64,000 bases of DNA from Acutalibacteraceae bacterium (lineage in GTDB: Bacteria; Bacillota; Clostridia; Oscillospirales; Acutalibacteraceae), in contig JAZNGB010000042.1 of NCBI GenBank assembly GCA_045576275.1, positions 26,882-90,881 on the forward strand, given 5' to 3'. A program made the translations under genes and the position numbers. Shown in pieces: positions 17,101-57,165 of this stretch. The notes under the pieces are model-generated. The model was not told the DNA's origin. It worked only from the letters and a program-made list of their open reading frames with translations, and did no database searches. The stretch's first letter is position 1; every line of letters starts with the position of its first letter.

Positions 17101-20100
17101 TGATGCAACCACCGGCAAGTACGATGCAGCAGCAGCTGTTTCCGGTATCCTCAACACTGTATTCGATCTCATCGATTCTCTGACCGATGCTCCGAGTGTT
17201 ATCGGCGCTGCTATGGAACTGATTCCGAACGTCATTTATTTCCTGAATGCTGACGGTGTCAAGTCTGCAGTCAACAATCTGTTGGCTCCCATCAACGGTC
17301 TGCTTGATATGGTCGGTCCTCTCCTTGGCGAAGAAATCTCCCTTGCAGCTCTGCTTGGCGATCTTCCCATCGACATTACCGACATCACCACAGAATCCGT
17401 TCTTGCACTGCTCACCGAACAGTTCGGTGTACAGTTTGCTACCGAAACACTTGATCTCGGTGCAATCCTCAGCACTCTGTATGTTGGTGAACTTGCACCT
17501 TACACCTATGCTGACAACCTCACAGGTTACACCCTCGATGTCAGCGCTGCTGAATACGATGTGCTTACTCTCGTTATCAGCTTTGCTCTTGAACTGTTCA
17601 CCATCAACGGCGATCTGTTTGCAGGTCTGTTTGGTGAAGACGGTGAAGCAATCGTCGATAGCATCATTGCTCTCCTTGGAGGCTATACCGTAACTTATAC
17701 CGATCCCGATTGGGCTTACATGTATGAAGGCGAGGATGCACTCGCAAAACTTGCAGCAGACGGCTTCCCGGCATTTGAGCACACGTATCTTGCATACTCC
17801 ACCGACTGGACCGAAACTACCGCACAGGGTGTTTACAACGCACTGGATGACATTCTCGTTCTTGTCATGGATTCTGTTGCCGACGGCAACACCATCGCTC
17901 AGCTCATCGAAGGCGTTCTGACTGATAATGTTTACACCGATGCAAACCTTGTTGCGATCGTTGAACTCATCGTCAACGCAATCGCAGGCTTCGATGCTTC
18001 TCTGCTTGAGCTTATCGATGTCGTGCTCGATACCAACATTGCCGCTTGGTTCGCAATGTGTGATGTTGATGCTGACGGCAAATATGTAGTGAAAGAAAAC
18101 TACTTCGCAGTTGATACTGCTGCCGACAAGAAGGCTGCTTTCGTAGCAGGTCTCAAGGAAGTTCTTGCTCCCGCAAATGAACTGCTTGCATGGCTGTTCT
18201 TCGGTGACTCTTACACCTTCTTCAACGGCTCCGACGGTGAAGCCATCATCACTCTCATCGGTGGCGAAGGCTACGCACAGGGACTTGTGCCGATCTTCGA
18301 AGCACTCGGCTGCACAATGCCTGCTGCTGACACCTTCAAGGAAGGCGAAACCTACAACGTAGGCAACGCTGTTGCTGCAATCCTCGACGCTGCACTTGCA
18401 CTTGTCGATACCATCTCTGCAAACCCGATTGAAGAAGTATTTGCACTCATTCCGAATCTGCTTTACTTCATCAATGCAAACGGTCTGAACAGCGCAGTTT
18501 CCAACCTGCTTGCTCCCGTCAACGGCGTTCTCGCTGAACTCAGCGATGTCGTTGGTGCAGATAACCTGCAGGCACTGCTTACTGATCTTATCGACTTTGA
18601 TCTCAGCAACCTCGGCACAGATGCAGTTCTTGCACTTCTTGTTGATAAAACCGGCTTTGTTATGAATGACGAAATGAAAGATGTCATCAAGAACATCTAC
18701 GGTCTCGGTGTTGCAGCTGCTTTCACTTCTGCAAACGGTGAAACCGCTTACAAGGTAGACATTACCGATAGAGAATACGATGTTCTTACCGTCCTTCTTT
18801 CCTTCGTTCTCGATGCATTCAACCTGAACGGCGAACTCTTCTCCGGTCTCCTCGGCGCAGAAACCTACAATGCAATCGTTGCACTGCTTCAGGGCTGCAC
18901 CGCAACATATACGCATATCAACTGGGCATACATGTATGACGGCAATACCGCAAAGCTTGCTTCTGACGGTTTCCCGGCTGTTGAACTTAAGTATCTTGCA
19001 TACTCCACTGATTGGACAGAAGAAGTTGCTCAGGGTGTTTACGATGCACTCGATGATATCCTTGCACTCGTTCTTCCGTCTCTCCTCGGCGACAATGAAA
19101 ATGTTGCTGCTCTCGTAAACGGCCTTCTGAATGACAGCGTTTACACCGACGAGGTTCTCAATTCTCTTGTTGAACTCATCGTCAATGCACTTGCTTCTCT
19201 TGATGAAAGTTTTTACAACGGCGTTGGTGCACTGCTTGCAGCAGACATCTCTGCATGGTTCACGATGTGTGAAGAAAATGCAGATGGCGAATATGAATGC
19301 ACCAAGGATTGGGGCGTTGATGCCGCAACCGATAAGAAGGCTGCTTTCGTAGCAGGCATCAAGGATGTCCTTGCTCCTGCAAACGAACTGCTTGCATGGC
19401 TGTTCTTCGGCGGTTCTTATGAATTCCTGAACGGCACGACCAAGGAAGTTCTCATCACCATCAACGGTGGCGAAGGCTATGCTTACGGCCTTGTTCCGAT
19501 CTTTGAAGCACTCGGCTGCACAATGCCTGCTGCTGAAACCTTCAAGGATGGTGATACCTACAACGTAGGCAACGCAGTTGCTGCAATCCTCGATGCAGCT
19601 CTTGCACTCGTTGACAAGATCTCCGGCAACCTTGCAGAAGAAGTATTCAACCTTCTTCCCAACCTGCTTTACTTCATCAATTCCGACGGTATCTCCGCAA
19701 GCGTCAACAACCTTGTTGCTCCTGTGATTGCTGTTCTCACAACCCTTAAGCCCGTTGTTGATGTTTCGCTGAATGAGCTGATCGTTGATGCCATCGGCAT
19801 TGATATCTTCAATCTGACAACAGAAGCTCTGTTCAAATACCTTGCTTCTGATGCAGTTGGTTTCATCACAAATGCAGATATGGTATCTGCTGTTGTCAAC
19901 ATCTATGCTGTCGGTGATGCTGTGGCTTACACCTCTGCAAACGGCAGAACCGCTTACAGAATTGACAGCAATAAGGCTGATGTCCTTACCGTTGTTCTTT
20001 CCTTCGCACTCGATGCATTCAACCTTAATGCAGAACTCTTCTCCGGTCTCCTTGGCGAAGAAACCTATGAGGCTGTTTACAACCTCATCCGTGGCGCTGC

Positions 20101-43806: not shown

Positions 43807-43841
43807 AAGGAGTGAATCCGCTTGTTGCAGATTCACTCCTT
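43807..43841. terminator. Bidirectional terminator between convergent genes
   Basis: 12-bp stem aaggagtgaatc / gattcactcctt. Confidence 0.75.
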
Positions 43842-43853
43842 CTCTTATTTGAA

Positions 43854-44279
43854 TCAGAATGTTTTATGCAAGATTTTGTTGAGTCTCTTCTCGGCAATTT
43901 TGACAGAAGCTACCACAATTCCCCAAATCGCAAAGAAACCGACTACAAAAATGCCTGTGAAAATAAACACCACCATTTTTTCAAACGGAATCCACGAATT
44001 GAGCAGATAGCAGCCGACATAGGCAGCATACAAGCTCAGAAAATGGAAGAATACCGATTTTACCGTTGACCAATGCTCAATCTGCTCAAATACGGTCGAG
44101 CCTGCCTGCATGAATGCGAGCAGGTAGGTGGATACCACACCGAGCAATATCTGCACTGCGGTGATTGAAAATGAAGCATCAGCCGCTTCAATGCAAGCCA
44201 GCACAATGCCGAGAATGATCGGTCCGAAGCCGCCGAACAGTAAGCCTCTGTGCATAAATTCTTTTACATAACGATTCAT
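43854..44279 (-). CDS. DUF3021-family membrane protein
   Basis: Four TM segments, N-terminus KEFMHRGLLFGGFGPIILGIV. It is 4-nt overlapped with the upstream LytTR gene, which is a known conserved pair. Confidence 0.7.
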   Translation of the reverse strand: MNRYVKEFMHRGLLFGGFGPIILGIVLACIEAADASFSITAVQILLGVVSTYLLAFMQAGSTVFEQIEHWSTVKSVFFHFLSLYAAYVGCYLLNSWIPFEKMVVFIFTGIFVVGFFAIWGIVVASVKIAEKRLNKILHKTF

Positions 44280-44713
44280 TTTTTCAAACCCATCCTTTCT
44301 TTGATGTTTTTTAAGTTTCGCCGTGACACATAATCGCAGAAGCCGTTTTGTAATGTGACCGACAGCGTACCCGTCAGCCCTGTGTCAAACCGCGCGATTT
44401 TGGCAATGTTAATAATGCAAGACTGATTGATTTTGACGAAATTGCGCGGCAGCCGTTCTTCAATTTTATACAGCCTGTTTTTTGTCAACAGTTTTTCTTT
44501 GTCTGTGCAGGCAAAAACGCGGTCATTTTCCACCGTGAAACAGTAAACATCTGTTATTTGCAACGGTATGGCCGTTTCGTTTCTGTACCCCATCAAAGGC
44601 TCATTTTCGCTGTTGATAAGCTGCTCGATTGCGTCTGTCAATGCACTTTTATGTTGTGCATATACGATGACTTCTTCTTCATGCTGTGTGCCGATATGCA
44701 GTGTGAGTTTCAT
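44276..44713 (-). CDS. LytTR-family DNA-binding protein with no receiver domain
   Basis: Start taken at MKLTLHIG. LytTR core DVYCFTVENDRVFACTDKEKL....RLYKIEERLP.NFVKINQSCIINI. Confidence 0.8.
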   Translation of the reverse strand: MKLTLHIGTQHEEEVIVYAQHKSALTDAIEQLINSENEPLMGYRNETAIPLQITDVYCFTVENDRVFACTDKEKLLTKNRLYKIEERLPRNFVKINQSCIINIAKIARFDTGLTGTLSVTLQNGFCDYVSRRNLKNIKERMGLKK

Positions 44714-44824
44714 GAAATTCCCCCTTGCAATACCATCATACAAAGTCGCACAGCAATTTGCAAGCATTTTGAGCCAAGCGGTCGTTTACCGGTTTTATTC
44801 GGCAAATTATGTGCAACAGTATAC

Positions 44825-44892: not shown

Positions 44893-47800
44893 TTAATGTT
44901 CTGCAACCTTGGCAAGCCATTGCGCAGGATCTTCCAGATTGACCGCCGCACGCAGAATCAATCGTGCATCCGCAGCATCGACTTTGCCACTTCCATCCAC
45001 ATCGGCTGCAATATTCTGAAGGATAGTAAATTCTTCCAATGAAACTGCATTTCGCAATGTGCTTCTTGCATCCGAAGAGCTAACAGAACCGTCACCCTTT
45101 ACCTCACCGTCACCGTCAACATCTCCCAATGCCACAATATAGTATTGCGTTCCATCTTCAAATGTCATTACTGCCCCCGTGCCGATATAATCATCAGCAG
45201 CTAGCGGTTTGCCGTTTTTGTCAATGAACACAACACCGTCACCTTGTGAAACAAGATCGGCAATATGCAGATACGGCAAGCAAATAACGATATTATTTCT
45301 CAGAATTGCCTTGTCACTATCTGTAAATTTTCTTTCCAGTTTTTCAAGGATTTCTGTTTTTTCTGCTTTGCAAAGCAAACAGATAAATCTTATTGTGCCT
45401 TCTGTATCATAGGTCGGTTCTTTAATCACAGTGCCGATATCCCATGTATGTGTACCGATTGCAGGAATTGTACATCCCTGTAAAACAACCGTGTTGCAGG
45501 CGAGACAATACAAATCTCCGGTATATCCGTCTTCCAAACAAGAAACAGTCTTAGTGCCGCGAAGTTCCGTATTGCCACCATGGATTGAATAATCATAATT
45601 GGTTTCAACGGTGAACATGTCTCCGCAACCTGCACACAAATATACGTTGTAACCGTTTGATATGCACGTGCCGGGAACGGTATATAACAATTCGCCCGTA
45701 ATGTGTTTATCCGGCTCTGTTCTCAAGGAAGCGGACACAGGAAGACGTTTGCCGTTGAAGCACAATTCACCGGAAATTTCCAAATCAAGATGATGATTCA
45801 GCAATCTTGCATCATCTGCAGATAATGTGAATGTTAACAACTTGAACTCATCGGAATTTACAACACATTGATAATCAGCGTTTGAATCTGCCAGGAATTC
45901 TTCTGCGGTCCACAGGGACTCCCTGAAATACCCCACATGTTGCATGTCATAATTCCACACGGAGTAAATACTATTATGTACAGACTTATCAACATTTTTC
46001 GCATCTTCTGCGATGGTGATTGTTTTAACAGTGAGAATATCATTATGATCTGTAAGTGTAAGATCCCATGAGGTTAAGCCGACACAGTCAATCAGCTCAA
46101 CAAGGATAGTTATGCTGTTATCGCTTTGGTTTGCGATTTGACTGATTCTGACCGATCCTTGCGGTTCAGCAGTTGTAAATGACGTATGTTCAACCGGCCA
46201 ATCTGCTGTATTTTCCAGACCGATTGCACCGCGTAAAATGTAGCGTGCATCTTCCGGTGTGATTTTTCCGTCGATTTCAATTTCTGCACAATATTTCTGC
46301 ACTTCAGTAAAGGGTTCCAATCCGACAATATATTGCATTGCCTGTCTGGAATCCGCTGCGGTAATTCTGCCATCGCCGTCTATATCACCGAGTAATGTGC
46401 CTGCAGGGATGACAACACCCTGTTTCAGCAGTTGGTTGCAAACGCTGCAATAAATGTCTCCCGTATATCCGTCCTCAGTATCTGTCGGAGCCTTCTTGTT
46501 GCGTAGCTCTTCGGTATGCTCCGTCTTCGGAATGACAGACTGTGCTACAAGAATCAATCCGCAATCGGTACATTTTTTACCTTCTGTCAGACCTGTTTCA
46601 CTGCAAGTTGCTGCAACTGCCGCCAATGTGGTTGTATTTTCATGACGACAATAAGCGTTGACATAAATGATAATTGTAATGTTGATCGATATATTTATGC
46701 CAATAGTGATTTTGTTCCATTCTTGTTGCGTACCGGCATATTTGATCTGTGTCAGATGATCGCAATAATCGAACGCATAATCTCCAATGTGCACAACCGA
46801 TATAGGCATAATAATGATCGTCAGATGGATACAGTAAGCAAATGCACCGATGCTGATATGCGTTACCGTATTCGGAATGGTAAAGGATGTGTTTGTTTTG
46901 CCACCGGGATAATAAATCAGATTGGTTTGATTTTTATTGTACAATACACCGTTCGCATCTGTTGAGAAGTAAAGATTCAGATGGTGAACAATAATAATCT
47001 CAAGTCTGATACAGTTGTAGAATACAAAATCACCCAATTGAGAAACATTTTGTCCGATTGTAATATTAATCAGGGCTGTACAGTTTCCAAAAGCTTTGTC
47101 ACCGATTTGTGTTACACTGTTCGGAATAACGATTACAACGATGCTGATACAATTATAGAACGCGGAACTGCCAATGATGGTAACATTGGAACCAAGTGTT
47201 ACCTCTACAAGAGAGGAACAGTTTCCGAATGCACCCGTGCCGATAACGGTAACACTGTTCGGAATGATGATAACCGTGATGTTGATACAGTTGTAGAACG
47301 CATATGCGGATATTGTATGGACCTTTTTACCCAAGGTAATATTGATAAGACCCGTACAATTTCCGAAAGCACGCTCACCGATCACAGTTACAGAATCGGG
47401 AATTACGATGACCGTTATGCTGACACAATTATAGAAAGCAAAACCGGAAATACTTGTAATTCCGCTGCCCAATGTAACATTTACCAGGGCTGTACAATTT
47501 TCAAAAGCATTGCTGCCGATGATTGTAACACTGTCTGCAATAACAATGGTTACAATGGTCTTACAGCCATAGAACATATAGTTACCGATTCTGGTGATTC
47601 CTTCACTGATGACCACTTTTGTAATATTGTACTGATTGAAGAAGGCGGTATCTTTGGTAAAGTCAGGCAACATACCGACGCCTGTAATCACCAAGGTGCC
47701 GTCGGAAAGAATTTGCCATGTTTGTCCGGTAACAAATTTTCCGCTGTTGATATACTTATAATGTCGTTCGGCATTCAATAAACAAGAATTATAGCTGCCG

Positions 47801-50800
47801 ATTTCAATCTTATTCCATTCTGCTTCGCCACCGTTGTAATATACATCTTTCAGGTTATTACAACCGTAAAACGCTTCTGTATCGATTGTTCTGAGTCCGC
47901 TGCCTATTGAAATGCTGATCAGTGAAATGCAGTTAAAGAATGCAGATGAACCGATTTCTCTGACAGCATCCGGCAGAATGATTTCTGTCAGAGCCGAGCA
48001 ACCGCTGAATGCGGAATAAGAAATAACCGTAACCGTGTCGGCAATTGTTACAGATTGCAGATGTTTGCAATTGCCGAATGCAAAATAAGAAATTGAAACA
48101 ACACCGTTCGGAACGACAAATGTTGCATCGGTCTTTCCGAGGGGATAGCAGATGAGTACAGTTTTGTTCTTATCATAAAGTACGCCGTACAAAGAACTGT
48201 ATTTTGCGTTGGTTTCTGCAACAGTGATATCGGTCAAGGATTCGCAGCCATAGAACACAGTCGAACCGATCATGATAACACTTGCCGGAATAAAGATGCT
48301 TTTCAATGCAGAACAGCAATAGAATGCAGAATTGCCGATGGTTTTCAAACCGTCGGGAAGTGTAATGCTGACGAGTGAGGAACATCCGCTGAATGCCGAA
48401 TAACCGATTGCAGTCACCGTTGATGCAATGCTGACAGATGTAACAGCCGAGCAGCCGATAAATGCCATTCTTCCAATTGTGGTAACGCCATCTTCAATGA
48501 TAATTTTTTTAATCGAAGTGCGATAATTGTACCAGGGAATAGCTGAAAATGAAACATAATCGTCCATAGCACCCATACCGGAAATAACAAGCGTACCGCT
48601 GGCTGTCAGTTTCCATGTGACATTTGTTCCACAACTGCCGGAGTCGGAAATGATATCATCATTTCCTGGAATGCCGACTTCTTCATAATATCTCTGTGCA
48701 CCCGGATGCAACGGAACAGCACCCACCGCAGTTGCATTTGCAATATCCATTTGTGCTGCACGCGGGTGAATGGAAGTGTTGCCGGCAACTTTTTCCCAAA
48801 GTCCTTTTGTGATTTCATACACCTGTTCTTCAGGCATGTCGTTGGAAACAACGAAAGTAGCCATGATGGAAACAGTGTTTACGGGTTCGGTAACGAATGC
48901 ATAATCCTTATCGGTCATTTCGTGCTTTGCATAGAAGCTGTACTGCTCCTGAAGGTTAGCAATAACGTCTTCGCCGAGTTCAACAACAACAACATCAGTG
49001 GAAGTTGCAAGTTCGGTGATGGCGGTGGTGGGAGTACCTGCAGTGATGAAAGCAGCATCGATGGAACCGTCTTTCAGCTGGGTAGCACTGTCACCGAAGG
49101 AAGCAGTAATCTTGTTGATATCTGTATCAATGTCAAGACCGGCAGCAGCAAGGATCTGGGTTGCATTGTAGTAAACACCGGAGCCGATGTCGCCGACAGC
49201 AACGTTCTTGCCTGCAAGGTCAGCAACGGAAGTGATACCGGAAGCCTTGGTAGCGATGAGCTGGCAGACTTCAGGATATACACAAGCAACAGCAGAGAAG
49301 GAAGTGATGGGAGTTTCAAAGCCGTTGGTGCCGTTGTAAGCATAGTTCATAACGTCGTTCTGAACGATAGCCATCTTGATGTCGCCGTCTTCGATCATTT
49401 CGATGTTGACCTGAGAGCCGCCGGTGGAAAGGATTTCAAACTTGTAATTGTCAGTGCCGAGGATCTGACCAACAGCAGTGGTGAATGCATAGTAGGTGCC
49501 GGTTGTGCCGCCGGTACCAGTTCTGACGGGGGATACATAATCCACATTCGTGAAAAACAGAGTTTCTTTTGTCTCGCCGCAAAGCGTACAGGTGTAGGTT
49601 TTAACTCCTGCCTTGTTGTAGGTCGGTTCAATTGTGACAACACCGTCATTCCATATGTGTGCATCATTAACTGGCAATGATACCGTTTTGGTTTTTTTGC
49701 AGATGGTGCAGGTATATACTTTGATACCTTCGGTGATGCAACTCGGCTGAACTTTGATGACACCGTCATTCCAAACATGTTCACACGCCTCAACATAAGA
49801 ACCAAAATGAATTTCAGCATTCAGTAACGAATTATTGTAATCGTTTATCAAAACAACATCCCAGTTAACTGCCGAGCCTTCATAATACACATCCGCAAGT
49901 GCACTACAGCCATAAAAAGCATAATAATCTATTGTTTTTACGCTGATGGGAATGCTGACGGATGCCAGAGATGTGCAATTAGAAAATACAGCCCGATTGA
50001 TGATTGTCATTTTATTGGGAATCGTAACGGTAGCCAACGATGTGCAACCGTAGAAAGCTGAAGATCCAATGCTCGTCACATTGCTCGGAATATCAATCGA
50101 TGCGAGTGAAGTGCAGCCGGAAAATGTTGCATCTCTGATGCTCGTCACATTGCTCGGAATATCAATCGATGCGAGTGAAGTGCAACCGTAGAATGCTGAA
50201 GACCCAATGTTTGTCACATTGCTTGGAATATCAATCGATGTGAGTGAAGTGCAACCGGAGAATGCTGAAGACCCAATGTTTGTCACATTGCTTGGAATAT
50301 CAATCGACTTGAGTGAAGTGCAACCGGAGAATGCTGAATATCCAATGCTTGTCACATCGCTCGGAATATGGACGGTGACAAGTGCAATGCATCCGGAAAA
50401 TACATTCTCGTTAATACTTGTAATGCTATTCGGCAGGTTGATTGATGTTAGTGATGAGCAACCCGAGAAAGCATTTTGCCCAATGTTTTTCACACTATTC
50501 GGAATGTCGATATGCGTTATTGCTGCATTATTGTGAAAAGCATATTGCTTGATTTGTGTTACACTATTGGGAATATTGAGCTTTGTTACAATTATGTTGT
50601 TCAAATATAAATAGTGTGCATTCGACAAAGGATTTGCAAACTCATTCAAGAATGCAATATTGCACCATGCTGCCAAATTCGTAATGTATACAGCCTTCAA
50701 CGAAGAGCAGTTTTCAAAAGCGGAATATCCGATGTTTGTCACACTGCTTGGGACAGAAACCGAAGTAATTGATGCACAGTTTTTAAATGCAAAATTATTT

Positions 50801-53766
50801 ATGGATATAACTGTATTGGGAATAATCAACTTTTTGATGAGTTCGTCATTCAGATATAAATTGAATGGATTGTTAACATGGGAATCAAATGCAATATTAC
50901 ACCATGCTGTCAAATCCTCAATATAAACAGCATCCAATGAATTACACCAGTAAAATGCACCATATCCTACACTTTGCACACTATTCGGTATGGAAACAGA
51001 TGTTAAGAAATCGCATTCATCAAATGCGTAATTCCCGATATGTGTTATACCTTCAGACATTTCAACTGTTTTAATAAGTTGACGAATTGAATACCACGGT
51101 GCGGCTTTATAAGAACTGGAATCATAATTCTTCATTGATCCGGTTCCGTAGATCGTCAACACCCGATTGCTGTCTAATTTCCATTTGAGATTGTTGCCGC
51201 AATTGCCGGAATAGTACACACGATATGGTGCTTCACCAAGAGATTCAAAAGTGTGATCATGTTTATCGGCATAGTCCTGTGCTGTCGAATTGTCATACCC
51301 TTTGATTACATTTGACGTAATAGTAAATGCACTGTTATCTATTAAACAAATGGGATTCAGAATGGTAATTGAATTCAATGCCGAACAACCCCAAAAAGCC
51401 TGATCTCCGATAGATGACACGCGAGCTGGAATAATGATAGATTCAAGAGCGCAGCAATGTTCAAAAGCATGATCTCCAACAGATTTTACACTTGCAGGAA
51501 GATAGTCTTTTATCATTATAATCGAAGAATCTTGAATTGCAGTGTCATCCGGAATGGTGGATTCATCTTTTTGAATGGTAGTTGATTCTGTTGATGTGCT
51601 TGTCTCTTTGTCATCTATAATCTCATTTGTTGAAGTTGGGTGCAAAACGGCATATTCTGCTGTAGCGGCTTGGGTTGCCAAAGGCTCTTCATAAACATGT
51701 GTTGCATCAGAATCGTTCAGGCTCGATGGATCATAAGGGTCGTGGTAAGTAAAGGATTCTTCAGCGGAATGTCCTGTATTCATAGTTGTTTCCGGCACTG
51801 AAAGTTCACCTTGTGGAGTTGTCAAATCATTGATTATAATACTCTCTAACAGGTTGCAATTGCTGAATGCATAGTTACCGATGGACGTAATTGCCGAAGA
51901 AAGGCTTAATGTTTTAATCTTATTTTTATAATTATTCCAAGGTGCACCTGTTGATGAAACATAATTCCACATATCTCCTGAGCCGGAAATTGTTAAAACA
52001 TATTCATTGTTGTATGTCCAGAACAGATTGTTTCCGCAGGTGCCGGAAGCGATGATTTTGGTGGCATAGGGGATGGGTTCACCGTCGGCGATTTTGGTGT
52101 TGCAGTCGAGGCAATAAGTGTCACCGGTGTAGCCGGGTGCGTCTTCGGTTGCTTCTCTTGCATCACGTACTTCCGTGCCGCCGACATGGTTGGTGAAGTC
52201 AAAGGGGATAACTTCGATGTAGCTGTCTTCGCATTCGCAGGTGTAAGTCTTCACACCCGTGGTGCAGCAGGTGGCAGCAAGGGTGACGGTAGAGGTGTAG
52301 GAATGCTCGTGTGTTGTTGGAGCACCCCCGAGGGAAACAAAGGTGCGGCCATACCTTTCGGCGTAAGCCTGCGCCGTGGAACAGGTGTAGCCGTAAATCG
52401 TCGCACCTTCATATATGGTAAATTCTATATAATAGATTTCACAATCCGGGTTCAGGATGGTGATCGATGTCAGCGAGGTACAGTTATAGAACGCAGAATC
52501 CCCGATGCTCGTCACGCTGTCAGGGATGGTAACCGAGGTCAGCGAATCGCAGTAGGAGAACGCAGAACCCCCGATGCTCGTCACACTGTCCGGGATGGAA
52601 TAGGTTGTTCTTTCATTGCCGATGGGATATTGAATGAGTGTTGTTTTATCTTTGTTGAACAAAACACCATATTCATCATTACTGTAATGTTTATTACCGG
52701 ATTCTACTGTAATTTCAGTCAGCGAGGTGCAGTTATTGAACGCCCAATGCCCGATGCTCGTCACGCTGTCCGGGATGGTGATCGAGGTCAGCGAGGTACA
52801 GCCGAGGAACGCATAATCCCCGATGCTCGTCAACCGGCTGTTCGCGGAAAAAGTGACCGAGGTCAGCGAGGTGCAGTGGTAGAACGCCCTATCCCCGATA
52901 CTTGTCACGCTGTCTCCGATGGTGACCGAGGTCAGCTTTGTGCAGTCCTCGAACGCAGAATCCCCGATGCTCGTCACGCTGTCCGGGATGGAATAGATTG
53001 TTCTTTCATTGCCGATGGGATATTGAATGAGTGTTGTTTTATCTTTGTTGAACAAAACACCATATTCATCATTACTGTAATGTTTATTACCGGATTCTAC
53101 TGTAATTTCAGTCAGCGAGGTACAACGACCGAACGCCTCATCCCCGATGCTCGTCACGCTGTCCGGGATGGTGACCGAGGTAAGCTTTGTGCAGTCCTGG
53201 AACGCATAACGCCCGATGCTCGTCACGCTGTCCGGGATGGTGACCGAGGTCAGCGAGGTGCAGTCGTAGAACGCGGCATACCCGATGCTTATCAACCGGC
53301 TGTTCGCGGAAAAAGTGACCGAGGGCAGCGAATCGCAGAAGGAGAACGCATAATACCCGATGCTCGCCACGCTGTCCGGGATGGTGACCGAGGTCAGCGA
53401 GGAGCCCCAGTAGAACGCATACTCCCCGATGCTCGTCACTCCGTTTTCAATGATCACTGTTTTGATTGCGCTACGGTTGGAATACCACGGAGCAGAAGAA
53501 GGTGATGAATAATTCCTCATTGCTCCTGTGCCTGCAATGGTCAGCAAGCCGTCGCTGTCGAGGGTGTAAGTCACATTGGTACCGCAGCTGCCGAATTTAA
53601 CAATAGTCGCGGCATCTGCCGAAAAATTGAAGTCAATGTCGGGTAAGTTCCATTCCGGCAGGTTGAGGTCGGGCCATTGCAGCCCCACAAAACCGCTCAG
53701 CGGTGCGGCGGTGAGGAACATTGCAACGACCAGGAAACATGCCAATGCTTTTTTGAATGTTTTCAT
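44893..53766 (-). CDS. Giant secreted BspA-type leucine-rich-repeat protein (about 2,957 aa) with an embedded TAXI solute-binding domain, Cys-rich modules, two dockerins and a cohesin-like module
   Basis: ATG at 53766 (MKTFKK) follows RBS aaggag. Signal peptide ALACFLVVAMFLTAAPLSG. Dozens of 22-23-aa repeats of the IPDSVTSIG..AF..C.SLTSV type. See the sub-features for domains. Confidence 0.9.
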   Translation of the reverse strand: MKTFKKALACFLVVAMFLTAAPLSGFVGLQWPDLNLPEWNLPDIDFNFSADAATIVKFGSCGTNVTYTLDSDGLLTIAGTGAMRNYSSPSSAPWYSNRSAIKTVIIENGVTSIGEYAFYWGSSLTSVTIPDSVASIGYYAFSFCDSLPSVTFSANSRLISIGYAAFYDCTSLTSVTIPDSVTSIGRYAFQDCTKLTSVTIPDSVTSIGDEAFGRCTSLTEITVESGNKHYSNDEYGVLFNKDKTTLIQYPIGNERTIYSIPDSVTSIGDSAFEDCTKLTSVTIGDSVTSIGDRAFYHCTSLTSVTFSANSRLTSIGDYAFLGCTSLTSITIPDSVTSIGHWAFNNCTSLTEITVESGNKHYSNDEYGVLFNKDKTTLIQYPIGNERTTYSIPDSVTSIGGSAFSYCDSLTSVTIPDSVTSIGDSAFYNCTSLTSITILNPDCEIYYIEFTIYEGATIYGYTCSTAQAYAERYGRTFVSLGGAPTTHEHSYTSTVTLAATCCTTGVKTYTCECEDSYIEVIPFDFTNHVGGTEVRDAREATEDAPGYTGDTYCLDCNTKIADGEPIPYATKIIASGTCGNNLFWTYNNEYVLTISGSGDMWNYVSSTGAPWNNYKNKIKTLSLSSAITSIGNYAFSNCNLLESIIINDLTTPQGELSVPETTMNTGHSAEESFTYHDPYDPSSLNDSDATHVYEEPLATQAATAEYAVLHPTSTNEIIDDKETSTSTESTTIQKDESTIPDDTAIQDSSIIMIKDYLPASVKSVGDHAFEHCCALESIIIPARVSSIGDQAFWGCSALNSITILNPICLIDNSAFTITSNVIKGYDNSTAQDYADKHDHTFESLGEAPYRVYYSGNCGNNLKWKLDSNRVLTIYGTGSMKNYDSSSYKAAPWYSIRQLIKTVEMSEGITHIGNYAFDECDFLTSVSIPNSVQSVGYGAFYWCNSLDAVYIEDLTAWCNIAFDSHVNNPFNLYLNDELIKKLIIPNTVISINNFAFKNCASITSVSVPSSVTNIGYSAFENCSSLKAVYITNLAAWCNIAFLNEFANPLSNAHYLYLNNIIVTKLNIPNSVTQIKQYAFHNNAAITHIDIPNSVKNIGQNAFSGCSSLTSINLPNSITSINENVFSGCIALVTVHIPSDVTSIGYSAFSGCTSLKSIDIPSNVTNIGSSAFSGCTSLTSIDIPSNVTNIGSSAFYGCTSLASIDIPSNVTSIRDATFSGCTSLASIDIPSNVTSIGSSAFYGCTSLATVTIPNKMTIINRAVFSNCTSLASVSIPISVKTIDYYAFYGCSALADVYYEGSAVNWDVVLINDYNNSLLNAEIHFGSYVEACEHVWNDGVIKVQPSCITEGIKVYTCTICKKTKTVSLPVNDAHIWNDGVVTIEPTYNKAGVKTYTCTLCGETKETLFFTNVDYVSPVRTGTGGTTGTYYAFTTAVGQILGTDNYKFEILSTGGSQVNIEMIEDGDIKMAIVQNDVMNYAYNGTNGFETPITSFSAVACVYPEVCQLIATKASGITSVADLAGKNVAVGDIGSGVYYNATQILAAAGLDIDTDINKITASFGDSATQLKDGSIDAAFITAGTPTTAITELATSTDVVVVELGEDVIANLQEQYSFYAKHEMTDKDYAFVTEPVNTVSIMATFVVSNDMPEEQVYEITKGLWEKVAGNTSIHPRAAQMDIANATAVGAVPLHPGAQRYYEEVGIPGNDDIISDSGSCGTNVTWKLTASGTLVISGMGAMDDYVSFSAIPWYNYRTSIKKIIIEDGVTTIGRMAFIGCSAVTSVSIASTVTAIGYSAFSGCSSLVSITLPDGLKTIGNSAFYCCSALKSIFIPASVIMIGSTVFYGCESLTDITVAETNAKYSSLYGVLYDKNKTVLICYPLGKTDATFVVPNGVVSISYFAFGNCKHLQSVTIADTVTVISYSAFSGCSALTEIILPDAVREIGSSAFFNCISLISISIGSGLRTIDTEAFYGCNNLKDVYYNGGEAEWNKIEIGSYNSCLLNAERHYKYINSGKFVTGQTWQILSDGTLVITGVGMLPDFTKDTAFFNQYNITKVVISEGITRIGNYMFYGCKTIVTIVIADSVTIIGSNAFENCTALVNVTLGSGITSISGFAFYNCVSITVIVIPDSVTVIGERAFGNCTGLINITLGKKVHTISAYAFYNCINITVIIIPNSVTVIGTGAFGNCSSLVEVTLGSNVTIIGSSAFYNCISIVVIVIPNSVTQIGDKAFGNCTALINITIGQNVSQLGDFVFYNCIRLEIIIVHHLNLYFSTDANGVLYNKNQTNLIYYPGGKTNTSFTIPNTVTHISIGAFAYCIHLTIIIMPISVVHIGDYAFDYCDHLTQIKYAGTQQEWNKITIGINISINITIIIYVNAYCRHENTTTLAAVAATCSETGLTEGKKCTDCGLILVAQSVIPKTEHTEELRNKKAPTDTEDGYTGDIYCSVCNQLLKQGVVIPAGTLLGDIDGDGRITAADSRQAMQYIVGLEPFTEVQKYCAEIEIDGKITPEDARYILRGAIGLENTADWPVEHTSFTTAEPQGSVRISQIANQSDNSITILVELIDCVGLTSWDLTLTDHNDILTVKTITIAEDAKNVDKSVHNSIYSVWNYDMQHVGYFRESLWTAEEFLADSNADYQCVVNSDEFKLLTFTLSADDARLLNHHLDLEISGELCFNGKRLPVSASLRTEPDKHITGELLYTVPGTCISNGYNVYLCAGCGDMFTVETNYDYSIHGGNTELRGTKTVSCLEDGYTGDLYCLACNTVVLQGCTIPAIGTHTWDIGTVIKEPTYDTEGTIRFICLLCKAEKTEILEKLERKFTDSDKAILRNNIVICLPYLHIADLVSQGDGVVFIDKNGKPLAADDYIGTGAVMTFEDGTQYYIVALGDVDGDGEVKGDGSVSSSDARSTLRNAVSLEEFTILQNIAADVDGSGKVDAADARLILRAAVNLEDPAQWLAKVAEH
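44932..45129 (-). other. C-terminal dockerin module
   Basis: Two Ca-binding loop/helix repeats: GDVDGDGEVKGDGSVSSSDARSTLRNAV and ADVDGSGKVDAADARLILRAAV. Confidence 0.75.
45721..46155 (-). other. Cohesin-like beta-sandwich module (tentative)
   Basis: About 145 aa between the two dockerins. It starts SVRISQIANQSDNSITILVELIDCVGLTSWDLTLTDHNDILTV, which resembles the cohesin pattern V.V.....G..V.V.V.L....G......L.YD...L. Confidence 0.4.
46213..46395 (-). other. Internal dockerin module
   Basis: GDIDGDGRITAADSRQAMQYIVGL ... EIEIDGKITPEDARYILRGAIGL. Confidence 0.75.
48670..49527 (-). other. Complete TAXI-family TRAP-transporter solute-binding domain embedded in the LRR protein
   Basis: VRTGTGGTTGTYYAF...GGSQVNIEMIEDGDIKMAIVQNDVMNYAY...VYPEVCQLIATKASGITSVADLAGKNVAVGDIGSGVYYNATQILAAAG...LKDGSIDAAFITAGTPTTAITELA...AVPLHPGAQRYYEE. 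This follows the TAXI (TIGR02122-type) consensus end to end, from memory. Confidence 0.85.
50040..50385 (-). repeat. Five near-identical tandem 69-bp (23-aa) LRR units
   Basis: gctcgtcacattgctcggaatatcaatcgatgcgagtgaagtgca recurs with a 69-nt period. It encodes IDIPSNVTNIGSSAF(S/Y)GCTSL(T/A)S. Confidence 0.8.
52400..53450 (-). repeat. About 2.7 tandem copies of a 393-bp (131-aa) unit, with long identical stretches
   Basis: The roughly 140-bp stretch gggatggaatag(g/a)ttgttctttcattgccgatgggatattgaatgag...tgtaatttcagtcagcgaggt occurs at about 52592-52732 and 52985-53125. Flanking LRR units are also highly similar. Confidence 0.8.
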
Positions 53767-53855
53767 TTTGCACAAACTCCTTTTTTGATCGGAAAAAGAA
53801 AACTGCTTTTCCGAATATTTTTATGCAGGTTTGTAAAATATAATAAACCAATTTA

Positions 53856-53884
53856 AATTTACAACAATAAAGCAATAATGTCAA
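53856..53884 (-). promoter_or_regulatory. Candidate sigma-A promoter of the giant LRR gene
   Basis: On the minus strand, TTGACA (53884-53879), 17-bp spacer, TAAATT (53861-53856). Confidence 0.5.
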
Positions 53885-53916
53885 CCGACTTTCTGTTTTT
53901 TTGTTAATACATAATG

Positions 53917-53957
53917 AAAAAGGATTCAACCATCTGTGCAAGATGATGAATCCTTTT
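53917..53957 (-). terminator. Terminator-like hairpin after the PHP gene
   Basis: Stem aaaaggattca / tgaatcctttt with a short T-run on the minus strand. Confidence 0.6.
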
Positions 53958-53970
53958 GTTTTTGCTTTAT

Positions 53971-55305
53971 TTACCTGTCAGCATTTCCTTGTTTTCTTGC
54001 TTTCATCAGGCGGATGCGGTAGGGGATTTCGCCCAGCAGACCGCCGACGGCAAGCACAACGCGGTTGCTCTTTCTGCGAAGTGCCTTGAGAGCTTTGATG
54101 TCTTCTTCGCTCACTTTGTGGGGTTTGGGCGGTGTACCGTCGTCAAGGGTGATTGCCTGTGTCAGGCAGATGCCGTGTTCGGACGATGCCTGCATTCTGA
54201 CATAGAGGAAATCTTCCGCACCGTCAACGGTGTCAAGGTCAAGGGTAAAGGTGCCGCTTGGCTGTATGGTGTCAAATTTTTCTTCTTTGATCACTTTGCC
54301 GTTTGCAACCCACAGAATGCGGTCAAAATCAGTGGCAGAAACGGTGATGCTGTGGTCTTTGGTTTCAATGCGGTCAAACAACGGTACGGGGCCGGGAGTG
54401 TTGCGTTTGTCCATGTCCTGTTCGGGACCGAATGTTTCGTCCGCACGGATGATGCGTGTCACACACAGGGAAGTACCGGCTTTCATGGCGGTCTTGACAT
54501 TTTCGAGTGTCAGATCGGGCATGAAGAAATAACAGAACGACGAGTCCACATCACGTTCGATGTGCATATCTCCGTTGCTGAATGCAATCACCTTTTTGCC
54601 GTGCGGAAGACAGTACTGCAGCACATGGTCCCACAGATGTCTGTCCCAGGGGGTTGAAGAGTTCTTTTCGTTGAAGACTTCCATCCCCAGACAGGTCGGG
54701 TATTTCAGCAAAATGTTGCCGAAGTAGTGAATCATGAACGGGTCGTGGATCTTATTTTTGTCGTTGTTCGTGTTCAGCCAGCTGCCGGGGTGATTCATGA
54801 ATGAAACACCGCCGTTTTCTTCGACCGCTTTTACTGCACCTTCGTAGTCGTTCTCCTTGCCGCCGAACATCTCGCATCCTTTCATGAAAAAGCCGTTGAC
54901 ATGGGGTTTTGTGGCGGTCAGATTGCACATTTCATTGCCGCCCGGCACACAGAGCATACCTTTGCCACGGGGATTGCCGTCGGGCAGCGGATAGGTGCCG
55001 TTTGCGATTGCGTTGCTGTCTTCGGTAGAAAACCAATGCAGTTTATAATGCCGCATGGCACGAAATGCTCTGTAAAGAAGCGGTTTGGACGGACATTCGT
55101 CCCAGTTTCTGCCGGTAACACCGTGGTCGGTCATGGCAAGAAAATCAAAATCACGGTTGTAGTAGGCGAGAATGGCATCGGTCAGATCCATTTCGCCGTC
55201 GCTTACGATTGAATGCGTGTGCAGATTGCCTTTGTAGCGTTTCCATGCATTGCTGCCATCCCAGATAATGTTCTCATAAGGAGAAACAAGACGGTAATTC
55301 TTCAT
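53971..55305 (-). CDS. PHP-domain phosphoesterase, paralogous to 1606-3147
   Basis: YENIIWDG..W.RYKGNLHTHSIVSDGEMDL....YY.RDFDFLAMTDHG mirrors NPYANVNWD...YKADLHCHTNASDGNDTL...FDALAISDHG. Also has MNHPG. Confidence 0.75.
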   Translation of the reverse strand: MKNYRLVSPYENIIWDGSNAWKRYKGNLHTHSIVSDGEMDLTDAILAYYNRDFDFLAMTDHGVTGRNWDECPSKPLLYRAFRAMRHYKLHWFSTEDSNAIANGTYPLPDGNPRGKGMLCVPGGNEMCNLTATKPHVNGFFMKGCEMFGGKENDYEGAVKAVEENGGVSFMNHPGSWLNTNNDKNKIHDPFMIHYFGNILLKYPTCLGMEVFNEKNSSTPWDRHLWDHVLQYCLPHGKKVIAFSNGDMHIERDVDSSFCYFFMPDLTLENVKTAMKAGTSLCVTRIIRADETFGPEQDMDKRNTPGPVPLFDRIETKDHSITVSATDFDRILWVANGKVIKEEKFDTIQPSGTFTLDLDTVDGAEDFLYVRMQASSEHGICLTQAITLDDGTPPKPHKVSEEDIKALKALRRKSNRVVLAVGGLLGEIPYRIRLMKARKQGNADR

Positions 55306-55441
55306 AACGGCCTCCGTTTTCGCTTGAAAAAAATTTACATGTATGTTAAAATTATAGCGATTTTTCAGAAAGGTATGATATTGTCATTTTAGCATATTGT
55401 TTGTCTGAATGCAATTATAAAATGACGAAAGGAAGACAAGA

Positions 55442-56365
55442 ATGAAACTGCGGCACTTGTTTTTGCCGATTTTACTTTGTATATGTTTATGTTTTGGCGG
55501 ATGTCAGATTGCAGATACCGTTTTGTCAAATCTTCGCCGTGTATTTGGTCCGCAGGAAACAACAAGACCTTATTACATAGAAGACAGCAACGGTTTGGTG
55601 ATTCCGAATTATGATATCAGCACGGCACCTTATGATACTTCTTTGTTTGTTTCGGATGAAGAGGATCGCATGACGTATGCCGATGCTGTTGTGCAAACAC
55701 AACTCGGTATTGATGTTTCCGCATGGCAAGGTGAAATTGATTGGCAGGCGGTAGCTGATGACGGAATTGATTTTGCCATTCTGCGTGCGGTTGTGCGTGG
55801 TTGGGGTGCTAACGGTTTGTTATCGGAAGATGAACGCATCAGGGAAAATCTTGAAGGTGCCACACAGGCAGGTCTTGATGTCGGTGTCTATGTGTTTTCG
55901 CAAGCCATAACCGTGCAGGAAGCTTTGGAAGAAGCGGAATTGGTTTTGCAGATTGTTGAAGGCTATGACATAACATATCCGATCGTTTTTGACTGGGAGA
56001 AATATCCCGATGAACCGACTTCGAGAACGCTGCATTTGCCTTCCGAAACCCTGAATGCCTGTGCACAGGCTTTTTGTTCGCGCATTGAACAGGCAGGATA
56101 TGATGCAATGATTTATATCAATCTTGAGTTCGGTTATTATGAATATGACCTTGAACACTTGCAAGATTATGATTTATGGCTGTCACAATATGCCGACAAG
56201 CCGACATATTATTACCGGTATACAATGTGGCAATATTCAAGAACAGGTACCGTCGCAGGCATCAACGGGAATGTTGATATGAATATTTGCCTCTATGATT
56301 ACACAGCAGAATCTGCTGCAACAGAAACTGCAATTACAGAGCAGATAACAGGAGGAGAATCATGA
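55442..56365 (+). CDS. GH25 lysozyme (muramidase), probable lipoprotein
   Basis: Signal with ...LCFGGCQ, and the GH25 motif LGIDVSAWQGEIDWQAVADDGIDFAILRAV. Confidence 0.9.
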   Translation: MKLRHLFLPILLCICLCFGGCQIADTVLSNLRRVFGPQETTRPYYIEDSNGLVIPNYDISTAPYDTSLFVSDEEDRMTYADAVVQTQLGIDVSAWQGEIDWQAVADDGIDFAILRAVVRGWGANGLLSEDERIRENLEGATQAGLDVGVYVFSQAITVQEALEEAELVLQIVEGYDITYPIVFDWEKYPDEPTSRTLHLPSETLNACAQAFCSRIEQAGYDAMIYINLEFGYYEYDLEHLQDYDLWLSQYADKPTYYYRYTMWQYSRTGTVAGINGNVDMNICLYDYTAESAATETAITEQITGGES

Positions 56366-57165
56366 TTACACTTTCGAATTTGCACACACACAGTCATTTT
56401 TCAGATGGAAAGAATACCCCACGCGAAGTAGTGGAGGCGGCTGTTGAAAAAGGTTTTTCCGTGTTGGGTTTTTCTGATCACGGGTATACCGATTTCGATT
56501 ACACTTATTGTATGCACAGCGAAAGACTTGAGAATTACAAACCTGCCATCCGTGCTTTGCAGGCGGAATATGCCGACCGTATCAAAGTGTTGTGCGGTGT
56601 TGAGCATGATTATTTCGGTCCTGCATCCGCTTATGAGGGATACGATTATTTTATAGGTTCCGTTCATTATGTCATCGGAAACGGGATTTATTATCCTATT
56701 GATGAAAGTGCAGCAAAAACACAGGCTTGCATCGATGACGGTTTCGGAGGAGATAAAAACGAGTTCAGCCGTTCTTACTATGATAGTGTTGTAAAATGTG
56801 CACAGCTGAAACCGCTGTTTTTGGGACATTTTGATCTGATCACAAAGCACGGAGTTCCGGATGAAAGTGACCCGAAATACAGAAAGATCGCATTGGAAGC
56901 AATGGATGCGGTGCTTGAGACGGGTGTTCCTATTGAGGTCAACACGGGTGCAATGGCACGTGGGGTTACAACGTTGCCGTATCCGTCCGATTTTTTGATG
57001 CGTCGCATTGCAGAAAAGAAAGGGTATGTAACCCTCGGCAGCGATTGCCACGATTGCACAAAACTTGAATATGCTTTTGATTTTGCATTGGAGTGTTTGC
57101 GCAACTGCGGCATAAAAAGTGTGCTTGTCTATGATGGTGAACGCTTCGTAGAAGAAGGAATATAA
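56362..57165 (+). CDS. HisJ-family histidinol-phosphatase-like PHP protein
   Basis: NLHTHSHFSDGKNTPREVVEAAVEKGFSVLGFSDHGY and later GSVHY, GHFD and GSDCH. 4-nt overlap with the GH25 gene. Confidence 0.75.
   Translation: MITLSNLHTHSHFSDGKNTPREVVEAAVEKGFSVLGFSDHGYTDFDYTYCMHSERLENYKPAIRALQAEYADRIKVLCGVEHDYFGPASAYEGYDYFIGSVHYVIGNGIYYPIDESAAKTQACIDDGFGGDKNEFSRSYYDSVVKCAQLKPLFLGHFDLITKHGVPDESDPKYRKIALEAMDAVLETGVPIEVNTGAMARGVTTLPYPSDFLMRRIAEKKGYVTLGSDCHDCTKLEYAFDFALECLRNCGIKSVLVYDGERFVEEGI

Follow-up and report, generated by a model that had tools for sequence, protein, structure and literature searches.

An intact TAXI solute-binding domain embedded in a giant, putatively secreted LRR_5-dockerin protein of an Acutalibacteraceae bacterium

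Our analysis of a 64,000-nucleotide (nt) stretch of an Acutalibacteraceae genome (assembly GCA_045576275.1, contig JAZNGB010000042.1, positions 26,882 to 90,881; hereafter the window) reveals a giant gene for a protein of 2,957 amino acids (aa), predicted to be secreted and made of leucine-rich repeats (LRR) of the LRR_5 family, Cys-rich modules and dockerins. Inserted in frame into this protein, where a linker joins a Cys-rich spacer to the LRR_5 block that follows, is a mature two-lobed domain of the TAXI family, the solute-binding proteins (SBPs) of transporters of the tripartite ATP-independent periplasmic (TRAP) type. This is a real and rare combination of domains, arisen by recombination with ordinary transporter genes, and the protein that hosts it is a giant, rapidly reshuffled and putatively secreted surface protein of an Acutalibacteraceae-like clostridium of the rumen or gut. 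We favour, at about an even chance, the explanation that the domain is an intact ligand-binding module that would be displayed on a dockerin-tethered surface scaffold.

The sequence-only reading of the window, which preceded this analysis, had recognized a complete TAXI domain at positions 48670-49527 (aa 1414-1699) between the Cys-rich modules and the LRR blocks of a 2,957-aa secreted protein, and had proposed profile searches as a check. These searches substantiate the claim. The motifs GTGGTTGTYY and PLHPGAQRYY are both present, the Pfam family NMT1_3 (PF16868) matches with 235.5 bits (E 1.3e-69; cutoff 27) over profile positions 2-289 of 289, and the NCBIfam model TIGR02122 (TRAP_TAXI) matches with 289.3 bits (cutoff 84.35) over positions 32-320 of 320; E-values from 1e-69 to 1e-157 exclude a chance match to the family. 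Translation and Pfam likewise place the domain in a putatively secreted LRR_5/dockerin protein of the stated length, flanked by Cys-rich modules on its N-terminal side and by an LRR block on its C-terminal side. Its boundaries, set by alignment with free-standing homologues at the protein level and with their genes at the nucleotide level, are 48667-49545 (aa 1408-1700), essentially a refinement of the earlier coordinates. Homology to free-standing TAXI proteins begins about nine residues before GTGGTTGTYY and stops two residues before the natural C-terminus; the embedded copy is exactly the mature folded domain, without a signal peptide, lipobox or low-complexity linker of its own. An AlphaFold2 (AF2) model of aa 1405-1705 (mean predicted local distance difference test score, pLDDT, 94.4; predicted template modelling score, pTM, 0.90) displays two α/β lobes and a hinge, the Venus-flytrap architecture of cluster F SBPs. 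With this model as query, the seven top Foldseek matches were all TAXI SBPs (7/7; template modelling score, TM, 0.81-0.89), and the best matches in the Protein Data Bank (PDB), 8u79, 1us4, 9ibo, 8s4j and 4ddd (TM 0.87-0.89), were all TAXI proteins. Sequence and fold make the domain a TAXI family member, whereas its context departs from that of the family: it occupies aa 1408-1700 of 2,957 instead of forming a free-standing two-lobe protein of ~300-350 aa, and it has no linked permease. An antisense open reading frame (ORF) of 324 aa (48706..49680, +) also lies within the TAXI-coding region; we do not retain it as a gene, since the strong preference of that segment for C/T-ending codons is its most likely cause.

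TAXI proteins are normally free-standing, as the sequence-only reading had supposed. The 120 best matches to the embedded domain in a set of 5.8 billion proteins are all free-standing proteins of ~335 aa (range 325-376 aa) and up to 86% identical to it, those with named sources being annotated as TAXI subunits from metagenome-assembled genomes (MAGs) of Clostridia and Acutalibacteraceae, and the recent literature describes TAXI proteins as “invariably solely composed” of two lobes plus a hinge (PMC12344293) and as bound to a membrane transporter. A signal peptide and a lipobox occur in all the free-standing relatives that were aligned (6/6). In the loci fetched, the free-standing genes are located directly upstream of a gene for a fused permease of the DctM type (~700 aa). 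No TRAP permease was detected in the 64 kb of the window by Pfam searches of all long ORFs or by tblastn with a DctM-type permease, in agreement with the earlier remark that no TRAP membrane gene is nearby, and Pfam found no Glt_symporter domain in the giant protein or its neighbours. Compared with the free-standing TAXI-TRAP receptors TtGluBP (1US4/8U79) and VcGluP (8S4J/9IBO), for which glutamate-bound crystal structures exist, the embedded domain has the same profile and fold as well as equivalents of Y45, S75, Q93 and E125, but it lies ~1,400 aa from either end of its protein and lacks the signal peptide, the lipobox, the linker and an adjacent DctQM.

The ligand pocket can be predicted from that of VcGluP, whose residues have been dissected experimentally (PMC11574862). 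In the alignment, the equivalents of Y45, Y46, S75, Q93, E125, G156 and G203 of VcGluP are kept in the embedded domain, and S40 is changed to G, V44 to T, H123 to Y, D157 to V, Y200 to I and M201 to T; the changes at Y200, H123 and D157 set the embedded pocket apart from those of glutamate-binding TAXI proteins. All the mapped positions are the same in the free-standing clostridial relatives (invariant alignment columns). A check of structure and pocket, also proposed by the sequence-only reading, thus came out in favour of a domain with the same pocket residues as its transporter-linked relatives. Since this pocket is identical to that of free-standing transporter receptors, the embedded domain is predicted to bind the same ligand. 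Ligand binding is therefore plausible: the domain should bind whatever its transporter-linked relatives bind, probably an amino acid or a small organic acid and not necessarily glutamate.

Comparison with free-standing TAXI genes indicates that the embedded domain is a recombination mosaic. Its core is 95.3% identical at the nucleotide level (4.7% divergence) to the free-standing gene L001, with a synonymous divergence (dS) of 0.13 and a ratio of nonsynonymous to synonymous divergence (dN/dS) of 0.19, and its codons 1420-1449 are 100% identical to another free-standing gene, L002, the order of the patchwork being L002-like and then L001-like. At the amino acid level, the core is up to 93% identical to clostridial TAXI members. 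The 49 codons (147 nt) of the tail differ by 34-45% from every free-standing gene, pairs of free-standing genes differing by at most 29% among themselves; here dS is at least 1 and dN/dS at most 0.3. A maximum chi-square test places the breakpoint at codon ~1653, with none of 300 permutations reaching the observed statistic, and the divergence from L001 passes from 6.1% before this point to 34.5% after it. The tail nevertheless keeps every family-invariant residue and was modelled with high confidence by AF2. Its best protein match among the 329 TAXI proteins fetched reaches 61%, and the 150 loci from our scans of GTDB genomes and metagenomes contain no close relative of it. The first ~30 nt of the domain are also TAXI-like yet match no free-standing gene. 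The A-rich third positions of the tail might have served to prove that it has long resided in the giant gene, an argument weakened by free-standing genes being A-richer there too, and a derivation of the tail from dockerin-TAXI or transmembrane (TM)-anchored TAXI lineages was rejected, these being no closer (44-57%) than the canonical ones. In the simplest history, the giant gene would at first have contained an embedded TAXI domain that was either older and diverged or derived from a lineage not sampled here; a free-standing TAXI gene would then recently have overwritten its ~700-nt middle, by gene conversion or, less interestingly, through a collapse of paralogs in the assembly. That the core is so nearly identical to transporter genes points to a recent recombination event, and this in turn leaves room for a neutral accident.

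The host protein is an ordinary LRR_5-dockerin scaffold (Table 1). It has a positional ortholog of 3,783 aa in an Acutalibacteraceae MAG (L006:9059-20410, +), the contig of which is syntenic with positions 53654-57086 of the window at 67-82% nucleotide identity; the two proteins share a signal-peptide-like start, LRR_5 blocks and Cys modules, and each ends in a dockerin. The open frame of the giant gene, as given by the ORF list and the translation, extends over 44893..53775 (-), that is, 2,960 codons. Its likely start is the ATG at 53766, which is preceded by AGGAG 8 nt upstream and by a promoter-like TTGACA...TAAATT and gives the protein of 2,957 aa. Pfam matches LRR_5 (PF13306) in 14 stretches (1034 bits), LRR_8 as well, and Dockerin_1 (PF00404) with 37.4 bits against a gathering score (GA) of 22.9. 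The N-terminal segment is nearly identical to the N-terminus of the ortholog, and the C-terminal dockerin shares 38% identity with the dockerin end of the latter. The series of N-terminal LRR_5 blocks is broken twice, at aa ~490-580 by a Cys-rich module and at aa ~650-750 by a low-complexity linker. Within the first of these blocks, the GC content at third codon positions (GC3) of aa 100-200 (positions ~53166-53466) attains 0.83, whereas most of the gene has values of 0.25-0.45 and the housekeeping genes of the window ~0.42; this suggests that the block was likewise imported by recombination. The Cys-rich spacers yield sub-threshold zinc-finger or zinc-ribbon Pfam matches only, and modules of the same type also precede LRR blocks and a VWA domain in the ortholog. 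For the ~165-aa module that separates the two dockerin-like modules, Pfam gave no match at E≤0.01 and tblastn no relative in any fetched locus; neither approach supports its interpretation as a cohesin. The translation contains no membrane anchor.

Table 1. Coordinates of the giant gene and of its modules in the window
Feature	Position	Strand	Evidence and remarks
Giant gene, 2,957 aa + stop; putatively secreted modular LRR_5 / Cys-module / TAXI / dockerin protein	44893..53766	-	ORF list, translation, Pfam
Signal-peptide-like N-terminus MKTFKKALACFLVVAMFLTAAPLSGFVG	53683..53766	-	Read from translation; n-region (KK) and hydrophobic core visible
N-terminal LRR_5 blocks, aa ~55-1320	49807..53604	-	Pfam LRR_5 and LRR_8; translation
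Two Cys-rich (CxxC, zinc-ribbon-like) spacer modules directly N-terminal to the TAXI domain	49552..49794	-	Translation
Embedded TAXI (NMT1_3 / TIGR02122) solute-binding domain, aa 1408-1700	48667..49545	-	Profiles, homologue alignment, AF2, Foldseek
“Young” TAXI core, codons 1417-1651	48814..49518	-	Sliding identity, alignment with free-standing genes
“Old”, divergent TAXI tail, codons 1652-1700	48667..48813	-	Divergence table
Pair of LRR_5 blocks on the C-terminal side of the TAXI domain, aa ~1705-2370	46657..48654	-	Pfam, translation; 38% identical to the LRR blocks of ortholog L006
Internal dockerin-like module, aa ~2459-2508	46243..46392	-	Dockerin_1 22.7 bits (isolated segment); two Ca-binding-loop-like repeats
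~165-aa module between the two dockerin-like modules	45622..46164	-	Translation
C-terminal type I dockerin, aa ~2889-2937	44956..45102	-	Dockerin_1 27 bits on the segment

Proteins of this kind, with a signal peptide, arrays of BspA-type LRR_5 repeats and a C-terminal Dockerin_1 domain, are “cellulosomal” proteins of rumen Ruminococcaceae; they have been detected as secreted cellulosomal proteins in the metaproteome of a rumen-derived Ruminococcus consortium (PMC7480376), and the L006 ortholog belongs to them. The latter carries its VWA domain in place of the TAXI domain, which implies that the scaffold naturally hosts swapped guest domains. In 25 other giant ORFs from related loci, the guests were Big_2, fn3, Flg_new, GH85_C, SusE, Peptidase_C10, cohesin and SLH. 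The giant protein of the window differs from these relatives by its solute-binding guest, a type of domain found in none of the 26 examined (the ortholog and the 25 others). Judging from their sequences, LRR_5-dockerin scaffolds appear to swap guest domains freely, TAXI being an unusual guest. The ortholog also contains two repeated modules of ~230 aa of no assigned family (~aa 2095-2320 and 2505-2730) amid long runs of Cys modules.

TAXI domains occur in other multidomain proteins. We carried out an exhaustive HMMER search of 1.84 billion representative sequences, reaching approximately everything at least 33% identical; among the best 150 representatives none exceeded 1,300 aa, and none of the 24 longer or N-terminally extended ones that were inspected for their architecture joins LRR to TAXI. 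They include tandem TAXI proteins (2-4 copies), Zn-ribbon-TM-TAXI proteins with or without SH3_3, proteins with two fn3 domains followed by TAXI, a Ser/Thr-kinase-TM-TAXI architecture and a TAXI-Glt_symporter fusion (P0239). One protein of 386 aa, P0186 (MAG GCA_045538645.1), consists of a signal peptide, a Dockerin_1 domain (35 bits) and then a full TAXI domain (245 bits), and no TRAP permease was found within 10 kb of its gene. It resembles the giant protein in its predicted secretion, in carrying both a complete TAXI domain and a type I dockerin, in having no permease nearby and in its similar pocket motifs. It differs in that it has neither LRR_5 nor Cys modules, its N-terminal dockerin directly replaces the lipid anchor and its TAXI domain is 56-58% identical to that of the window. 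At the level of sequence, the association of TAXI and dockerin without a nearby permease appears to occur at least twice, in different architectures. The sequence-only reading had considered the architecture as undescribed. This stands as far as publications are concerned, since no paper in which TAXI occurs with dockerin or LRR turned up in our literature search, and none on P0186, which is a database sequence only; it needs to be tempered by the existence of these other multidomain TAXI proteins, one of them with a dockerin.

The dockerin-TAXI gene of P0186 is one of three dockerin genes in the same region (L156:10001-14918, GCA_045538645.1), the others encoding a dockerin with a weak DUF5067-like region and a WG_beta_rep-dockerin protein, and a reverse-transcriptase (RVT_1) gene is located nearby. 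Among the other TAXI proteins recovered, P0184, P0225, P0227 and P0326 are lipoprotein-like and start with the last ~90 residues of a TAXI domain, after which a complete TAXI domain begins; they look like tandem or circularly permuted TAXI proteins truncated in the second domain, possibly at contig ends. In P0228, a TAXI domain runs into an FtsZ-like C-terminal sequence, probably by a frameshift or an assembly chimera, and TAXI fusions from metagenomes need to be checked for this reason.

Two published systems come close to a TAXI domain in a new context. In the three-domain lipoprotein BP0403 of B. pertussis and the TAXI-GltS fusions of Lachnospiraceae, presented as unprecedented (PMC12344293), a TAXI domain has likewise become part of a larger polypeptide, with no coupling to a TRAP permease; it stays coupled, however, to a GltS transporter, whereas the partners here are those of an adhesin or scaffold, with no transporter domain or neighbour. 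GluP of V. cholerae has a role in the biofilm matrix for which glutamate binding is needed and the permease is not (PMC12718363). This offers a precedent for a TAXI protein with an extracellular, ligand-dependent role without a membrane component, although GluP is a normal free-standing SBP of a Gram-negative host and has no covalent link to a scaffold.

In the explanation that we favour, the giant protein would leave the cell through Sec and stay at the surface by way of its dockerin(s), bound to a cohesin partner. There, the TAXI module would close like a Venus flytrap on the small ligand, an amino acid or an organic acid, that its transporter-linked relatives also bind. Its task on display would be to capture or recognize this ligand, without being the receptor of a membrane permease. 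Because the module lies mid-scaffold, ~1,400 residues from either end of a presumably wall-distal protein with no membrane anchor, delivery of a ligand to a membrane transporter seems unlikely. Several observations weigh against this explanation. The fusion is a singleton in everything searched: LRR and TAXI were found together in one ORF in none of the 150 loci from the GTDB-genome and metagenome scans, made with a segment covering the C-terminal junction, and in none of the best 150 HMMER representatives (a query spanning the N-terminal junction returned 75 short candidates, none covering both halves, and was uninformative). The L006 ortholog has its VWA domain (aa 1678-1851) and no TAXI. 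The core is too near transporter genes for there to have been time to adapt to a new role, and the purifying selection that it records could have acted in the donor gene, not in the fusion. The internal dockerin-like module, with 22.7 bits, remains just under the Pfam GA of 22.9, and no cohesin partner was found in the 64-kb window by Pfam scans. Finally, exact look-ups found the giant protein and its two flanking genes in no other assembly on record, so that the junctions have no independent confirmation. Hence the co-option for surface sensing or binding put forward by the sequence-only reading goes further than the data, given a singleton fusion, an ortholog without TAXI and a core near-identical to transporter genes.

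The main rival to a displayed ligand-binding module is a neutral recombination accident, in which a fragment of the organism's own TAXI transporter gene would have entered a guest-tolerant, hypervariable surface-protein gene by illegitimate or homology-facilitated recombination, without any selected function, and would eventually be lost. The singleton status of the fusion, the absence of TAXI from the positional ortholog, the 95-100% nucleotide identity of the core to free-standing genes (dS 0.13) and the nature of the giant genes, compositional and modular mosaics with varied guests, are all as expected from such an accident. We nonetheless regard it as unlikely: although old and unique, both the head and the tail (dS ≥1) keep all family-invariant residues with pLDDT >90, the boundaries match the folded domain exactly in a frame that is intact over 8.9 kb, and the independent dockerin-TAXI protein P0186 means that the combination arose or was kept more than once. 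Alternatively, the domain might be a tethered transport receptor serving a TAXI-TRAP or GltS-type permease encoded elsewhere, with the giant protein replacing the lipid anchor. Its pocket and most of its surface are identical to those of transporter-linked SBPs, Firmicute TAXI proteins with alternative anchors exist (Zn-ribbon-TM, fn3 stalks, GltS fusion; PMC12344293) and the arrangement can be likened to the tethered binding domains of Gram-positive importers. Yet docking to the membrane seems geometrically implausible from a position ~1,400 residues from either end of a protein without a membrane anchor, and no permease is encoded in the 64 kb or within 10 kb of the dockerin-TAXI gene; we consider a tethered receptor quite improbable.

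An assembly artefact, the least probable alternative and one to which we give very little credence, would consist in a TAXI gene mis-joined to an LRR gene or, in a milder version, in a divergent embedded core replaced by reads of a paralog. The assembly looks like one of an uncultured genome with nothing identical on record, the core is an L002-like and then L001-like patchwork, and the GC3 of the gene ranges between 0.25 and 0.83, although the L006 ortholog is equally heterogeneous. The Cys-module/TAXI and TAXI/LRR junctions, at 49545/49552 and 48654/48667, are spanned by the peptides …ETLFFTNVDYVSPVR… and …YYEEVGIPGNDDIISDSGSCGTNVTWK…, and the partners share no sequence at either junction, so that a k-mer graph would have had nothing to join. 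Moreover, as the ~30-nt head and the 147-nt tail are TAXI-like and match no free-standing gene, real DNA must carry the Cys-module-TAXI-head and TAXI-tail-LRR sequences. Frame and domain boundaries are exact, and internal repeats do not account for a mis-join, direct repeats being confined within the giant gene to 52460-53444, far from the TAXI junctions. When the TAXI domain is removed in silico, the resulting sequence, CGETKETLFF-PGNDDIISDSGSCGTNVTW, is a normal Cys-module-to-LRR junction, comparable to CGETKTETVKYEPEIIASGTCGENLTW in the ortholog. A wholesale chimera thus appears unlikely, and the milder collapse of paralogous reads, which could mimic the replacement of the core, would leave the embedded domain in place.

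If the domain is indeed an intact ligand-binding module displayed through cohesin and dockerin, it would add a small-molecule receptor to the types of cargo of cohesin-dockerin systems and would widen the co-option of binding proteins to the cell-surface assemblies of Gram-positive gut bacteria. The known exceptions to the two-lobe rule, BP0403 and TAXI-GltS, are still coupled to transporters, and a dockerin-LRR TAXI together with P0186 would extend this picture. The broader idea that some gut and rumen clostridia display TAXI domains on cohesin-dockerin assemblies, as small dockerin-TAXI or as giant LRR proteins, in an extracellular layer for capturing or recognizing small molecules independently of any TRAP permease, is one that we consider doubtful; if true, it would amount to a new functional class for both TRAP-type binding proteins and cellulosome-like complexes. 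Independently of function, the gene would provide a clean natural example of a domain insertion followed by a gene-conversion-like homogenization with the donor gene family. Being one unconfirmed instance, it is of interest to specialists of TRAP transporters and cellulosomes, and its practical value, modest at present, will depend on a ligand and a phenotype coming to light.

The giant gene is surrounded by genes for GH95, a LytTR regulator and a DUF3021 membrane protein, a 444-aa protein of no assigned function, GH25, PHP and sigma factors. The LytTR and DUF3021 genes (43854-44767, -) follow it on the same strand, with no terminator-like site in between and a strong one after them (43807-43841), and a co-transcription of the three genes is possible from this arrangement. 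A second giant ORF of the window (11159-23050, +; 3,963 aa) has a signal-peptide-like start, is rich in L, A, D and T with a GC3 of 0.51, and matches no Pfam family at E≤1e-3; it would encode another giant secreted protein. SpoVAD is also encoded in the window and, together with the best relatives, fits a spore-forming host of the Oscillospirales/Acutalibacteraceae type living in the gut or rumen.

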